This document shows, in pieces, positions 58,855 through 64,000 of a stretch of DNA of 64,000 nt. The translations under genes and the position numbers were made by a program. How positions within the stretch are numbered: the stretch's first letter is position 1; every line of letters begins with the position of its first letter. The notes beneath the pieces were generated by a model, which was not told where the DNA came from, searched no databases, and saw only the letters and a program-made list of their open reading frames with translations. This stretch comes from Bacilli bacterium (GTDB lineage Bacteria > Bacillota_I > Bacilli_A > RF39 > UBA660), in contig JAFVEF010000037.1 in the NCBI GenBank assembly GCA_017478105.1, forward strand, positions 5,945 through 69,944, given 5' to 3'.

Positions 58855-61170
58855 TCAAGATACATGAACCTTTTTCTTTTTCTTAGAAAAAACTAAATCC
58901 ATAAAATAAGAAAGATTTCTAATAACAGTCATTTCAGCAATTGCAAAAACCAAACATAAAGCTACTGCTTTAATAGAAATATCATCAATATCAAATATAT
59001 TATATAAATAATTAGCACTAATAATAAATCCAAATATACAAATAGCAAAAACCATAATATGATATTTATTTATTGGTCTAGTTATATTCCATAATATATA
59101 AAAACCGACTACAGATATTAAATAAACACTTGCTGTTGCAACTTCAAATGCTTCAATATCAAATAATTCAGCAAAGTAAATCATTCCAACTACAGAGAAA
59201 AATGAAGTTAACGCCGCCGGAATTGCCTTAATTAAAACTTGATAAATAAATCTACCCTCTTGCTTTTTTGAATTTGGTTCAAATGCCAATAAAAATGCTG
59301 GAATACCTATATTAAAAACAGATATTATTGAAACCTGGGTAGGTTTTAATGGATAATTAAAAGCTGCTATTATCGAAAATAATGCTAATAATAAAGAAAA
59401 TAAATTTTTATACAAAAATAATGTTGCCGAACGAGTAATATTATTAATATTTCTTCTTCCTTCATAAATAATATCTTTCATATGAGAAAAATCATTATCT
59501 AACAAAACAATTTGAGAAGCCTCTCTAGCTGCATCACTACCACTTCCCATACTAATAGAACAATCAGCTTCCTTCATGGCTAAAATATCATTTACTCCAT
59601 CACCAGTCATCGCAACTTTTAAACCTTTTTCTTTAAAAGCTTCTATAATCATCTTTTTATCTTCTGGTTTTACTCTACCAAAAACAGTATATTTTAAAAC
59701 AGCATCTCTAATTTTATCATATGAATTCAGCTTACTCATAACAATATATTTATCACTATCTTTTATTTTAACCTTATCCGCAATATTAGATACAGTTATA
59801 GGATTATCACCAGAAATAACTTTTATTACTACACCTTGTTTTTGTAAATAATTAAAAGTCTCTAAAGCATTTTTTCTAATACCATTTTCTAAAACTATAA
59901 ATAAGACCACTTCTTGTTCTTTATTCTTTTCTTTAACCAAAACCAATACTCTTTTACCAGTACTAATATACTCATTTATCTTTTCAAAACAATTATCATA
60001 AATATCTCTATTTAATATCGATTCAGGAGCACCTAATCTATATAATAATTCCCCAACTTCTATCATTGAACATTTTGCCTTAGAACTAAAAGAAACCATT
60101 GAATTATACTTAAATTTTTCCCCTTTTTTAAAATAATCCCTAATAGCATTCATAGTAATATTATTATCCGTAATTGTTTTTGCATAATCTGCAACTATTT
60201 TTTTCCTTTTATCGAGCTCTTTATCATTTAAATTACAATCAGAAAAAACATCAATTACTTTCATTTCATTTGAAGTAATAGTACCTGTCTTATCAACACA
60301 TAAAATATCTACCCTCGCTAAAGATTCAATACTTTTCATATCATGTAAAAGTACCTTTTTCTTAGCCAATCTAGCAGCACTCAAAACTAACGCAACTGTA
60401 ACTAACAAATATAATCCCTCTGGAATCATTCCAATAATTGCTGCAACCATAGAAACACAAGCACTTTTAAAATCAACTCCATTAACATAAACTCCTTGAT
60501 ACAAAAGCGCTAATCCAACAGGTAATACTAAAACACCAGCGATTTTAATAATTAGCTCAATATCATTAATCATCTCTGATTTTTTTTCTTTAATTTCTTT
60601 TGCTTGAGTAGTTAATTTAGAAGCATATGAAGAAGAACCAACTTTAGTTAATTTTACATATACTTTTCCAGATATTATAAAACTACCTGATCTTACTTCA
60701 CTACCATCAACCTTTAAAACCTCATCTGCTTCTCCAGTAAGTAGTGCTTCATTTACCAATCCTTCTCCATCAACAACAACACCATCGGCAGGAATCTGTT
60801 TCCCGCTATCTAAAACAACTAAATCACCTAAAACTAAATCATTAGATGAAACAACCTCTTCCTTACCATCTCTAATAACAGTATAATCACAGACATCTAA
60901 TAAAGCCAAATCATCAAGAATTTTTTTGGCTTTTAATTGTTGGAAAATTCCTATCAAAACATTAGTAACTATTACAGGTAAAAATGTTAAATTTTTAATT
61001 GCGCCAATAAATATAAGTAATAAACTAATAATTAAAAATATTCCATTAAAATAAGTAAATATGTTAAAAAAGACTATTTCAAAAGTACTTTTATTTGTTT
61101 TATTTTTAATATAATTTGTTTTTCCCTCTTCGGTAAGAGACATTACCTCTTCCTTAGTTAATCCATTCAC
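58855..61170 (-). CDS. Cation-transporting P-type ATPase (HAD-IC)
   Basis: 771 aa. TGEA, CVDKTGTITSNEM, MTGDGVNDILAMKEAD. About 8-10 TM segments. Confidence 0.88.
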   Translation of the reverse strand: MNGLTKEEVMSLTEEGKTNYIKNKTNKSTFEIVFFNIFTYFNGIFLIISLLLIFIGAIKNLTFLPVIVTNVLIGIFQQLKAKKILDDLALLDVCDYTVIRDGKEEVVSSNDLVLGDLVVLDSGKQIPADGVVVDGEGLVNEALLTGEADEVLKVDGSEVRSGSFIISGKVYVKLTKVGSSSYASKLTTQAKEIKEKKSEMINDIELIIKIAGVLVLPVGLALLYQGVYVNGVDFKSACVSMVAAIIGMIPEGLYLLVTVALVLSAARLAKKKVLLHDMKSIESLARVDILCVDKTGTITSNEMKVIDVFSDCNLNDKELDKRKKIVADYAKTITDNNITMNAIRDYFKKGEKFKYNSMVSFSSKAKCSMIEVGELLYRLGAPESILNRDIYDNCFEKINEYISTGKRVLVLVKEKNKEQEVVLFIVLENGIRKNALETFNYLQKQGVVIKVISGDNPITVSNIADKVKIKDSDKYIVMSKLNSYDKIRDAVLKYTVFGRVKPEDKKMIIEAFKEKGLKVAMTGDGVNDILAMKEADCSISMGSGSDAAREASQIVLLDNDFSHMKDIIYEGRRNINNITRSATLFLYKNLFSLLLALFSIIAAFNYPLKPTQVSIISVFNIGIPAFLLAFEPNSKKQEGRFIYQVLIKAIPAALTSFFSVVGMIYFAELFDIEAFEVATASVYLISVVGFYILWNITRPINKYHIMVFAICIFGFIISANYLYNIFDIDDISIKAVALCLVFAIAEMTVIRNLSYFMDLVFSKKKKKVHVS

Positions 61171-61224: not shown

Positions 61225-61473
61225 TCAGTCTTCTACAATCTCACCATGTATTTTAACTAAACAAGAATCAGGACAAAATACATCAAATTCTTTTTTCTTA
61301 GTATTACCACAATCTAAAACCCCATTATTTTTTAAGGCAAATATATATGGATAAGCATTATAAAACAATTCCATACACATATCAGGACATTTATCATCAA
61401 TATAATAAACATCTCCCACTTTATGATATCCACTCCTGCATTTACTTTCAATAACTGTTAATTTAACTCTCAT
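61225..61473 (-). CDS. Small Cys-containing conserved hypothetical (TIGR04076-like)
   Basis: 82 aa. VIESKCRSGYHKVGDVYYIDDKCPDMC. Family assignment is from memory of the pattern only. Confidence 0.35.
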   Translation of the reverse strand: MRVKLTVIESKCRSGYHKVGDVYYIDDKCPDMCMELFYNAYPYIFALKNNGVLDCGNTKKKEFDVFCPDSCLVKIHGEIVED

Positions 61474-61484
61474 ATAACCTCCTA

Positions 61485-62375
61485 TTATTTATTTTTCCTT
61501 TCATTTATCATATCTAAATCAGTTGGAACCATATCAATAAATTCATATAAATTAATTAAAAAATCTTCAGTCTTAGATTGAAAAGAACCAACAGTCGCAA
61601 AAGAATCCTCATTAACCTTTTCTACTCCAGGTAACTTATTAACCATAGAAACACTACATATTTTTGGAATAAAGTAATTAACTGACATAATATTATCTTC
61701 TTTTCTTATTTCTAAAGTAAGAGCATGTCCTCTATCACGAATCATCATAATTACTAAATTAGGAAATATAGAAACTATATCAGTTCGTCCAACGTCTAAA
61801 GAATTTGGAAAACTATTAAAAATTACTTCACCCAAATTATATTTACCACCAAATAATCTTATTTCTTCTAAAGAATCATTATTTTTAGAAGCCACTTTAT
61901 CACAAGACTGCAAAATATCATTATTATTCATAACATAAAAATGTATTAAATGTAAAAGTTCATTAACCGTAGTAGCTTTTTCAATTGAGTTTGTAGGATA
62001 ACGGAAAGTATAACCAACACATTCATCTTTTAAATCAGAAATAAAACTAGGATCAATATCAGTAACATAGTTTTTATAAATATTTCTCAGTTTTACAGTA
62101 TCATCACATCTTTTTAATTCATCAATAAAACTATTTTTCTTTTTATCTATTTTTTCAAGTAACTTAGAATCATTCAAAAAATCAGAACTAATCTTTATTA
62201 ATTCTTCATACATATAAATAACCGAATTATATAAACTATCACTAAATCTAATAAGTTCTTCATTCGTTAAAGTTAAATTCTTAGGAAGAGAATATCTTAT
62301 CATTTCATTTTTAATTCTATTATCCGCAACAAATAAATGTTGTAAATTATTTAAAGTATTATTCATAATTACCAC
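61485..62375 (-). CDS. Hypothetical protein (296 aa)
   Basis: Long ORF between nrdG and the 82-aa gene. No recognisable motif. Confidence 0.45.
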   Translation of the reverse strand: MVIMNNTLNNLQHLFVADNRIKNEMIRYSLPKNLTLTNEELIRFSDSLYNSVIYMYEELIKISSDFLNDSKLLEKIDKKKNSFIDELKRCDDTVKLRNIYKNYVTDIDPSFISDLKDECVGYTFRYPTNSIEKATTVNELLHLIHFYVMNNNDILQSCDKVASKNNDSLEEIRLFGGKYNLGEVIFNSFPNSLDVGRTDIVSIFPNLVIMMIRDRGHALTLEIRKEDNIMSVNYFIPKICSVSMVNKLPGVEKVNEDSFATVGSFQSKTEDFLINLYEFIDMVPTDLDMINERKNK

Positions 62376-62418: not shown

Positions 62419-62988
62419 TTACACATATATTTGCTTTTTCTTAAATGCAGACTTTTCAAAATATTCATCTTCATCTAATAATACAACTTCATTTTTTTCT
62501 AAAGTTTTTTTCACATCAATTAATCTTTGATTTCTTGATCCTCTAAAAAGTAAGCTAAGATCTCTTTCTTTTAATATAAATCTTCCATCTACTAATATAT
62601 CTATATAAGATAAAATCTCTTTGTAATTTGGATTATTTAATGACATTTTCATTAATTCTTCATAAGTAAATCCCGTATAAACCCAAATATTATAACCTTT
62701 TTCTTTACAATATTTAGCAAGTTCTAAACAAGCATCTACTTGAAACATTGGATCTCCTCCACTAAAAGTTATTCCATCTTGGTTTTCAAGCTCATCTATT
62801 GCTTCTTTTACCATTTCAATAGGAACTAACCCTCCTCCATTAAAATCCCATGTCTGAGGGTTTTGACATCCCTTACAGTGATGAGAACAACCCTGAGTCC
62901 AAATTACCGTTCTAAGACCTGGCCCATCTACAATACTATCACTTTGTAAATCGGCAGCTAATCTTATATATTTACTATTTTGTTCCAT
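62419..62988 (-). CDS. nrdG: Anaerobic ribonucleoside-triphosphate reductase activating protein (radical SAM)
   Basis: 189 aa. GCSHHCKGCQNP matches CxxxCxxC. Its start overlaps the end of the 50-aa glycyl-radical ORF. Confidence 0.9.
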   Translation of the reverse strand: MEQNSKYIRLAADLQSDSIVDGPGLRTVIWTQGCSHHCKGCQNPQTWDFNGGGLVPIEMVKEAIDELENQDGITFSGGDPMFQVDACLELAKYCKEKGYNIWVYTGFTYEELMKMSLNNPNYKEILSYIDILVDGRFILKERDLSLLFRGSRNQRLIDVKKTLEKNEVVLLDEDEYFEKSAFKKKQIYV

Positions 62989-63127
62989 GAGTTACGCGAT
63001 CATTAACTTCTTGTTTTTTAGCGTTATTAAATCTATCTAATGTTCCAACTAAATATCCAGTAATTCTTCTAATACGATCAAATTTAACACCTTCACCAAC
63101 AACTTTAGTTCTCTTTTCTTTTTCCAT
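62975..63127 (-). CDS. 50-aa ORF encoding the NrdD glycyl-radical C-terminal segment
   Basis: Absent from the ORF track. Sequence: MEKEKRTKVVGEGVKFDRIRRITGYLVGTLDRFNNAKKQEVNDRVTHGTK. RxxGY...N.gK..E...RV.H is the class III RNR glycyl-radical motif. AGAGAGGGA RBS. Same frame as nrdD, 7 codons after its TAA. Confidence 0.7.
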   Translation of the reverse strand: MEKEKRTKVVGEGVKFDRIRRITGYLVGTLDRFNNAKKQEVNDRVTHGTK

Positions 63128-63148
63128 TTTAATCCCTCTCTTTCTATA

Positions 63149-64000
63149 TTAACGGCCACAGCCTTCTATACAACTTATTTTTTCATAACTAACGCCTTCA
63201 CCTTCACGACGTCCACATCTAGGACAAACATCTTTAATAACTCCAACATATCCACAAACTGGATCACGATCAACTGGATGATTAATTGCTCCATAACCGA
63301 TATCACAATCATGCATTATACGAACAACTTTTTCAAATGCATCAACATTATTAACAGTATCACCATCTAACTCTACATAAGATATATGACCGGCATTAGT
63401 ATATTTATGATACTTTCCTTCAATTTCCATTTTATGTTTAACTGTAGTTTTATAATAAACTGGAACATGGAAAGAATTAGTATAATAATCTCTATCAGTA
63501 ACTCCCTTAATTTTTCCATAGATTGAACGATCAATAGCAACAAATCTTCCTGATAATCCTTCAGCAGGAGTTGCTAAACAAGTAAAGTTTAAATTATATT
63601 CTTTAGTATATTCATCACATTTTTCTCTCATATGTTTAATTATCTCTAATCCTAATTTTTGAGCTTTATCACTTTCACCATGATGTTCACCAATTAAAGC
63701 TTTTAATGTCTCTGCAAGTCCAATAAATCCAATAGATAATGTTCCATGTTTTAAAACAGTTCTAATCTTAGAATTATTATCTAATTTTTCACTATTTAAC
63801 CATACATGAGAACCAAGTAAGAATTTAAAATTATTTCTTGATTTAGAACATTGACATTCAAATCTTTGTAATAATTGCCCTTTAACTAAATCCATCAATT
63901 CATCCAATTCATTATAGAAACCTTTCATATCAGCTTTATCTCTTTCACCTAGACAAATTCCATACTTAATTCCTAAACGTGGAAGATTTATTGAAGTAAA
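63149..64000 (-). CDS. nrdD: Anaerobic ribonucleoside-triphosphate reductase NrdD (N-terminus off the right edge; ends at an in-frame TAA before the glycyl-radical motif)
   Basis: The frame is open to position 64000. Zn-ribbon CGYVG...CPRCG...CIEGCGR* at the end. Confidence 0.88.
   Translation of the reverse strand, partial: FTSINLPRLGIKYGICLGERDKADMKGFYNELDELMDLVKGQLLQRFECQCSKSRNNFKFLLGSHVWLNSEKLDNNSKIRTVLKHGTLSIGFIGLAETLKALIGEHHGESDKAQKLGLEIIKHMREKCDEYTKEYNLNFTCLATPAEGLSGRFVAIDRSIYGKIKGVTDRDYYTNSFHVPVYYKTTVKHKMEIEGKYHKYTNAGHISYVELDGDTVNNVDAFEKVVRIMHDCDIGYGAINHPVDRDPVCGYVGVIKDVCPRCGRREGEGVSYEKISCIEGCGR

Follow-up and report, generated by a model that had tools for sequence, protein, structure and literature searches.

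Glycyl radical enzymes (GREs) are, by the textbook, single chains that carry their own radical. To our knowledge, GrcA, which serves pyruvate formate-lyase (PFL), is the one known exception acting in trans. A stretch of 64,000 nucleotides from a Bacilli bacterium (lineage RF39, UBA660; GenBank assembly GCA_017478105.1, contig JAFVEF010000037.1, positions 5,945 to 69,944 of the forward strand; the whole stretch is called the window below) raises the question of how a class III (anaerobic) ribonucleotide reductase (RNR) can work when its nrdD gene stops short of the radical glycine. Near the end of the window, nrdD closes at a TAA codon, and the glycyl-radical motif lies in a separate open reading frame (ORF) of 50 amino acids (aa), placed between nrdD and the activase gene nrdG. 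Judged from sequence, the locus very probably encodes a class III RNR of two separately translated chains and an activase, with the operon order nrdD-large, nrdD-small, nrdG. A preliminary description of this DNA had left four readings side by side; its two-piece enzyme stands, whereas sequencing error, pseudogene and stop-codon readthrough give way to the independent assemblies, the substitution rates, the reading frames and the unlinked loci described here.

Anatomy of the locus and its likely mechanism

The junction is composed of the following elements (positions are those of the window):

63149-64000, minus strand: 3' part of the large-subunit gene nrdD by ORF reading, 283 codons and TAA; the whole gene extends past the window end
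63215-63256, minus strand: Zn-ribbon segment C723...C733-P-R-C736, kept by the large subunit; C723, C733 and C736 are invariant in a 52-sequence alignment, and the segment pairs with CPKC of the P. copri NrdD structure 8P23
63152-63208, minus strand: 19-codon C-terminal tail of the large subunit, REGEGVSYEKISCIEGCGR
63149-63151, minus strand: TAA stop of the large subunit, the same in 10 independent assemblies
63128-63148, minus strand: 21-nt spacer with the Shine-Dalgarno (SD) site AGAGAGGGA; the SD core GAGGG, at 63134-63138, lies 6 nt ahead of the ATG
62975-63127, minus strand: small-subunit gene, 50 codons and TAG (62977-62975), with its ATG at 63127-63125; product MEKEKRTKVVGEGVKFDRIRRITGYLVGTLDRFNNAKKQEVNDRVTHGTK, with glycyl-radical loop and C-terminal helix
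63056-63058, minus strand: GGA codon for Gly24, the glycine of RIRRITGY and predicted radical site, equivalent to Gly711 of P. copri NrdD by the 8P23 alignment
62419-62988, minus strand: nrdG, radical S-adenosylmethionine (radical-SAM) activase (TIGR02491, E 5e-45), starting 14 nt inside the small ORF

Read on the source contig beyond the window, the complete large-subunit gene has 757 codons and encodes in order an ATP-cone (annotated on the product), a barrel, a Zn ribbon and the 19-residue tail. The piece inside the window matches positions 282-531 of the 562 positions of the Pfam NRDD model (E 9e-85), and the two pieces read jointly cover positions 1-562 (PF13597, E 5e-192). The RxxGY motif is absent from the large piece, which stops at about model position 531; it is found in the 50-aa ORF, which takes up the model at 532-562. 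Taken alone, the small ORF matches these last 31 positions with an E of 3.8e-8, above the gathering-score cut-off, and it also matches the C-termini of the NCBIfam NrdD models. The predicted masses are 5.8 kDa for the small protein and 87 kDa for the large enzyme piece.

These readings agree with the preliminary description on the TAA at 63149-63151, on the ATG at 63127 that follows seven in-frame codons later (TAT AGA AAG AGA GGG ATT AAA, with AGAGAGGGA within) behind a ribosome-binding site with the core GAGGG, and on the class III motif (RIRRITGY) in an ORF that overlaps the nrdG start. Two of its details had to be corrected. The stop had been placed directly after the Zn ribbon; the cysteines in question (CIEGCGR) belong to the 19-residue extension, which has no counterpart in one-piece NrdD. 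Moreover, the distance from Zn ribbon to radical glycine, given as about 31 aa, had been equated with the spacing in a contiguous NrdD. Between C736 and the glycine, a readthrough product would count 53 residues, as against 13-18 from the last Zn-ribbon cysteine in one-piece enzymes (16 in a second NrdD encoded elsewhere in the same genome, 18 in L021, 17 in L100 and 13 in P. copri 8P23).

The nearest solved relative is P. copri NrdD 8P23 (E 1e-180), with large-subunit residues 10-738 falling on chain positions 8-704 and small-subunit residues F16-H47 on positions 707-738. On 8P23 the cut thereby maps precisely to the border of the Zn ribbon with the buried glycine loop, and the 42 positions in excess of the one-piece chain consist of the tail (19), the stop, the spacer (7) and the small-protein N-terminus (15). 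All 52 aligned sequences share residues C192, C453, N135 and N137. An AlphaFold2 (AF2) run on the natural in-frame fusion, with TAA read as Gln and a 52-row alignment, gave a predicted local distance difference test score (pLDDT) of 82 and a predicted template modelling score of 0.78. The junction at 754-770 scored below 50 and residues 771-780 (RTKVVGEGVK) scored 77; Gly789 has a strand on either side (782-787 and 790-792), and a helix follows at 799-807. With this model as query, Foldseek ranked P. copri NrdD chains at the top (TM-score 0.78-0.88 on the target).

In the core mechanism that we consider highly likely, Gly24 is activated by NrdG, and the small protein that carries it docks in the barrel beside Cys453 without a covalent bond. 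NrdG would abstract a hydrogen from Gly24, and the small-protein loop would then insert at Cys453 in the manner of the covalent domain of the P. copri and phage T4 NrdD. The VVGEGV segment near the N-terminus of the small protein probably helps by packing against the Zn ribbon and the tail. In P. copri NrdD, Gly711 is named as the radical site, and the glycyl radical domain (GRD) of this one-piece enzyme is highly dynamic and invisible in dATP-bound states (PMC11226230). Because the domain is so mobile there, a detachable one is plausible. The small protein alone would supply its partner with the radical glycine and would hence be an obligatory subunit, not a backup: the adjacent large subunit lacks the glycine, and no other NrdD was detected in 13 of 15 related genomes. 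The comparison with GrcA/YfiD made in the preliminary description is thus apt for a small radical-domain protein acting in trans, but not for the role of a spare. Reduction of ribonucleoside triphosphates through a glycyl radical is predicted for the split enzyme.

Conservation and distribution of the split layout

The exact 50-aa product is recorded on at least 77 contigs. Ten independent metagenome assemblies with the small protein were compared; each has the 757-aa gene, the same TAA, spacer and SD, the ATG and the overlapping nrdG, and the 50-aa gene is called on 10 of their 10 contigs. Their identity to the window is 95.5-100% where the ungapped comparison holds; two rows lie at about 77%, which is assumed to reflect a downstream indel. 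The few single-nucleotide polymorphisms in the large-subunit tail among these assemblies are synonymous. The pairwise ratio of nonsynonymous to synonymous substitution rates (dN/dS) is lowest in the Zn ribbon (0.024), followed by the small ORF (0.098, at a dS of 0.88) and the tail of the large subunit (0.19). By these estimates both pieces are under purifying selection, with no sign of the relaxed selection expected of a pseudogene. In public records the small products are annotated as "hypothetical protein" or, by homology, as "anaerobic ribonucleoside-triphosphate reductase".

The comparison with close relatives proposed in the preliminary description came out in favour of a lasting arrangement: the split, the SD and the ATG are kept in 17 sister species of the same genus, whose large subunits are 75-88% identical. 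The stop is TAA, TAG or TGA, often in tandem (four in-frame stops at locus L005), and is followed by a spacer of 19-36 nt. Seen from the frame of the large ORF, the small ORF is in frame 0, +1 or +2: it is offset by 1 or 2 in nine sister species and in the same frame in eight as well as in this genome. An SD (GGAGG, AGAGG or GAGGT) is located 6-10 nt ahead of the ATG in every relative, while spacer length and sequence vary. Furthermore, an ORF with a CxxxCxxC motif follows 67 of 89 small ORFs, the commonest overlap being 14 nt. Taken across many species and several phyla, the comparisons show two genes, each with its own predicted start signals, conserved under purifying selection.

Wider searches returned a large family. 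A word-indexed search gave 5474 clusters at 90% identity, with short relatives of 27-87 aa, and HMMER, run exhaustively over 1.84 billion representatives at 50% identity, gave 1989 hits, of which the best 150 are all short proteins of 52-162 aa. Among the best 80 genome loci, 55 have the split layout beside a large nrdD, with spacers from -44 to +298 nt; 6 are one-piece, 16 have a small ORF away from nrdD and the remaining 3 have no glycine loop found by motif scan. Split carriers belong to Clostridia, Desulfovibrionaceae, Succinivibrionaceae, Treponemataceae and Peptococcaceae. They include the isolates Succinivibrio dextrinosolvens DSM 3072, Butyricicoccus porcorum BB10, Agathobaculum hominis M2 and Coprococcus intestinihominis, and metagenome-assembled genomes (MAGs) of Oscillospiraceae, Lachnospiraceae, Anaerovoracaceae, Desulfovibrionaceae, Succinivibrionaceae, Treponemataceae and Peptococcaceae. 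In a balanced sample of 400 Bacilli genomes, the split was found in 20 of the 28 positive genomes of the family to which the window belongs, and the other families are one-piece. From this survey of genomes, the split layout appears to be common in gut and rumen anaerobes.

Some look-alikes were set aside. Genomes of family f12 in the 400-genome sample (G143, G153, G222 and others) have NrdD C-termini that read as open frames of about 170-177 aa with one internal TGA; this is the pattern expected where TGA is read as Trp (code 4), not a split. A 169-aa NrdG that shares a 90% cluster with the Agathobaculum small protein was considered as a GRD-NrdG fusion, but the sequences are plain NrdG and the clustering is an artefact. 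A role of the tail cysteines (CxxxC, CC or CxC) in redox shuttling or in a second metal site was considered. The genus, Mogibacterium and Succinivibrionaceae conserve these cysteines, but many Clostridia lack them, so that no general requirement for them exists.

Origin of the split and spread of the small gene

The sequence around the cut contains a trace of how it may have arisen, in the form of a direct repeat (family D1) of 20 nt with 80% identity and a spacing of 105 nt, by which GEGV-x-Φ-[DE] is encoded twice:

63078-63097, copy 1, coding strand GGTGAAGGTGTTAAATTTGA: small-subunit residues GEGVKFD
63183-63202, copy 2, coding strand GGTGAAGGCGTTAGTTATGA: residues GEGVSYE in the tail of the large subunit

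In one-piece relatives this stretch occurs only once, CGRKEEDGVPFERIRRITGY. Following GE.V in the tail, the next eight residues (for instance SIERLRKL) are similar to those that come after GEGV in the small protein (for instance KFERIRRV), with a mean BLOSUM62 score of +8.3 over 56 distinct pairs as against -7.0 for shuffled tails. The tail thus looks like a degenerate relic of the strand preceding the radical glycine. The simplest history of the split that we infer starts from a one-piece nrdD whose 3' end was copied in a partial tandem duplication, in which the downstream copy would have gained a start while the upstream copy would have lost its glycine loop and become the tail. On a barrel-domain tree, whose sampling is biased towards small-ORF relatives, split and one-piece forms interleave with 8 parsimony changes, at least 4 of them forced by well-supported branches, and the phyla are mixed; transfer and repeated changes of state have therefore occurred. 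A single origin of the split was considered and not retained; the interleaving (4-8 changes) would fit one fission followed by several re-fusions as well as repeated fissions.

The small gene is also found on its own. All 16 non-adjacent small ORFs among the best 80 loci are located in mobile DNA, including a conjugative element (with type IV secretion system coupling protein, PrgI and DUF5688) and prophages (with portal, terminase, P4-type or Arm-type integrase and SocA/Panacea). Examples are:

Near position 3000 of L060, L070, L085 and L104: stand-alone small ORFs in mobile elements

Two MAGs have both a chromosomal operon copy and a mobile-element copy of the small gene. By eye, the mobile small ORFs resemble the lineage-specific small subunit of the same genome (L070 compared with L061, and L060 with L110). 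Of 12 genomes with non-adjacent small ORFs, 10 combine a glycine-less large nrdD with 2-6 small ORFs, up to six beside one large gene in the Desulfovibrio MAG G442. Two other Desulfovibrio MAGs (L127, G438:C12; L128, G439:C169; L129, G438:C83) have the order nrdD-large, nrdG and a cysteine-desulfurase-like gene, and their 61-aa small ORFs lie on other contigs than nrdD-nrdG. The survey of loci thus shows that the small gene, as recognised by its sequence, can sit at an unlinked locus or on mobile elements.

A related situation is seen in Bacilli with a one-piece nrdD, some of which have extra stand-alone proteins of 87-95 aa, composed of an N-terminal domain of about 55 aa and a FERIRRITGYLVGT glycine loop:

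L114, 4861-5124, minus strand: GRD protein of about 90 aa
L115, 4875-5147, plus strand: GRD protein of about 90 aa
L116, 269-556, minus strand: GRD protein of about 90 aa

The L115 gene begins 2 nt after a desulfoferrodoxin (superoxide reductase) gene and adjoins a Crp/Fnr regulator. In the 400-genome sample, 14 genomes were assigned to a pairing of a near-full-length NrdD frame with an extra loop frame of 92-114 aa (both frames in 13, the short frame only in G148). Judged by their sequences and company, these proteins of about 90 aa look like true extras in the style of GrcA.

A split-type gene is also present in a phage. The 953-aa nrdD annotated in Eggerthella phage EL753P1 (OP172808.1, 3741-7172; L113) is of the split type and is followed by a 102-aa ORF with no Pfam hit and then by the small piece. 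In the deposited record the small piece is frameshifted between ...FERIRRI and TGYLTG..., which could be a sequencing error or a real defect.

Regarding the neighbourhood in the window, the two ORFs directly 3' of nrdG have no Pfam match; one is Cys-rich and encodes 82 aa (61225-61473, minus strand) and the other encodes 296 aa (61485-62375, minus strand). The 296-aa gene stays after nrdG in most strain-level assemblies (L117-L126), and L118 and L121 have a different 93-aa gene there. Further on, an ordinary-looking P-type (E1-E2) cation-transporting ATPase of 771 aa is encoded at 58855-61170 (minus strand).

Competing explanations and significance

Several points weigh against a working two-piece enzyme. 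Translation of the 50-aa ORF and formation of the complex are both inferred from its sequence context, and the AF2 confidence around the glycine loop is only 55-77. Conservation alone cannot separate an adaptive split from a neutral one that has turned obligatory. A look at backup enzymes, as suggested in the preliminary description, found no class I or II RNR in the organism's own genome, but it did find an intact one-piece nrdD-nrdG-dUTPase cluster on another contig (L002, C1:42155-43984 region). This second nrdD encodes 736 aa, is about 30% identical, ends in ...ARRTCGYIGSNFW... and is followed by a 164-aa nrdG and the dUTPase gene. Because of it, the split copy is not demonstrably essential in this organism. 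The one-piece copy is present in nearly all species of the genus and the split type in about half. On the other side, no RNR besides the split enzyme was detected in G007 and G025, which belong to the same genus, or in 13 of 15 family genomes (at least 94% complete, 13 genera), a statement that rests on MAGs 90-98% complete and on Pfam models. Salvage of deoxynucleosides is also possible for small-genome bacteria.

The second nrdD-nrdG pair, together with the lack of the split type in about half of the genomes of the genus, is what a decaying pseudogene would need: a nonsense mutation would have cut nrdD while the intact paralogue on another contig does the work. This explanation is very unlikely, given how strongly purifying selection acts on the two pieces (dS about 0.9-1.1), the recurrence of the architecture in dozens of species of several phyla with SD and ATG always retained, and the genomes just named (G007, G025 and 13 more) in which the split enzyme is the sole RNR detected. 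Highly improbable is programmed readthrough, by which TAA would be decoded at some frequency to give one chain of 815 residues. The two ORFs do share a frame in this genome and in 8 sister species, but the frame is offset by 1 or 2 in nine others and in most distant relatives, the stops may be TAA, TAG or TGA and often stand in tandem (four in L005), spacers reach 298 nt, and some small genes are unlinked altogether. TAA is moreover the main stop in the window, and the readthrough chain would hold about 35-40 more residues between Zn ribbon and glycine than any one-piece NrdD. The direct repeat might invite a third idea, translational bypassing, in which the ribosome hops as in gene 60 from one GGT-GAA-GGY-GTT to the next, which lies 105 nt further downstream, and so restores a chain of ancestral length. 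The codons at the two sites match and the product of the hop, CGRREGEGV/KFDRIRRITGY, would have exactly the one-piece spacing; nevertheless, bypassing is scarcely credible, with no stop codon after the would-be take-off site, with 13 codons beyond that site under in-frame purifying selection, with SD and ATG conserved inside the supposed gap, and with a distance between the sites that ranges from about 90 to more than 400 nt where the small gene is linked at all. An error of sequencing or assembly at 63149-63151 can be practically dismissed: all that speaks for it is the source, a MAG-like assembly of 61 contigs, while 10 independent assemblies, made from different samples, share an identical junction and the 50-aa product occurs on at least 77 contigs. 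Two other candidates were discarded. An alternative genetic code with TAA as a sense codon does not fit a window (26.7% G+C) in which TAA ends 34 of 45 long ORFs, nor sister species that use TAG or TGA at the same site. A split intein or protein ligation does not fit extensions of only 13-25 residues without intein features.

A different kind of question is what the two-piece enzyme gains from its division. The small protein may be a diffusible and exchangeable "radical cartridge", charged by NrdG, plugged into the glycine-less NrdD and replaced after oxygen has cleaved it at the radical glycine; only a 5.8-kDa piece would then need replacing, not an 87-kDa enzyme. Extra copies would tune or back up the supply, and lineage-matched copies on prophages and conjugative elements would boost the deoxynucleotide synthesis of the host. 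We put this forward tentatively, on the side of doubt; the multi-copy and mobile-borne small genes and the proteins of about 90 aa beside one-piece NrdD speak for such a benefit. The alternative, about evenly balanced between belief and disbelief, is a gene fission fixed neutrally, after which the chains assemble once and behave like one-piece NrdD with no benefit in exchange, repair or dosage; it competes with the replaceable cartridge only, not with the two-piece enzyme itself. A nearly neutral state is expected to flip easily, as the interleaving on the barrel tree (8 changes, at least 4 forced) would have it, and the catalytic residues and glycine-loop sequence are the same as in one-piece relatives. 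Neutral fission does not readily account for genomes with 2-6 small genes per large gene, for small genes borne alone by prophages and conjugative elements or otherwise unlinked from nrdD, or for genomes with one-piece NrdD that keep extra GRD proteins of about 90 aa, one of them encoded after a desulfoferrodoxin gene. It is difficult to account for these observations unless the small protein is limiting and works in trans.

Compared with known systems, the two-piece enzyme is closest to one-piece NrdD with NrdG (P. copri 8P23, phage T4 1H7A, E. coli), with which it shares the ATP-cone, the barrel, the NxN flap, the thiyl-loop Cys, the Zn ribbon, the RxxGY glycine loop with C-terminal helix and the adjacent nrdG. 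It differs in that the chain is cut between Zn ribbon and glycine loop, which leaves the radical glycine on a separate 5.8-kDa protein; split large pieces have gained a tail of 13-50 residues, and small pieces an N-terminal extension of 10-25 residues with their own SD and ATG. GrcA/YfiD of E. coli and Y06I of phage T4 are likewise small autonomous proteins with a glycyl-radical loop, presumably activated by the cognate radical-SAM activase and also phage-borne; they are spare parts for PFL and set a precedent for a radical domain in trans (PMC8683613, PMC13450708). However, GrcA is homologous to the C-terminus of PFL (Pfam Gly_radical), whereas the small ORF matches NRDD only and had no hit to PF01228 (Gly_radical) in the Pfam search. 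Additionally, GrcA has 127 aa and backs up a complete PFL, whereas the small protein has 50 aa and a partner with no glycine of its own. The split class II RNR NrdJa/NrdJb also has its catalytic chain in two genes, cut near the C-terminal Zn-finger region (PMC9669993), but it is B12-dependent and uses no glycyl radical, and the separated piece consists of the redox tail and IscU-like/Zn-finger domains, not of the radical cofactor. The class I RNR (NrdA with NrdB) is an analogy only, in that a subunit of its own stores the radical, which is then passed to a barrel cysteine; NrdB is a ferritin-like metalloprotein that works by long-range radical transfer, unlike a 50-residue homologue of the NrdD C-terminus, for which direct insertion into the barrel is presumed.

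No description of a split NrdD was found in open-access papers and bioRxiv preprints. A 2026 review regards the formate lyases as the only GRE class with identified spare parts, and Andorfer et al. (2021) speculate on spare parts for other GREs (PMC8683613). If the cartridge proposal is true, this would be the first GRE with its cofactor-bearing residue on a separate subunit by design and the first spare-part system outside the formate lyases. With a natural, widespread two-piece class III RNR, the long-standing idea of spare parts for GREs beyond PFL would become directly testable. The annotation of nrdD would change, since thousands of "truncated" nrdD genes and "hypothetical" proteins of 50-75 aa would together be one enzyme. 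As a minimal and separable substrate, the small protein would also allow study of the way in which activases of the NrdG type reach their glycine and activate it. Finally, the two-piece enzyme would hint at how strict anaerobes of the gut and rumen, their phages and their conjugative elements may sustain DNA synthesis after brief exposure to oxygen.

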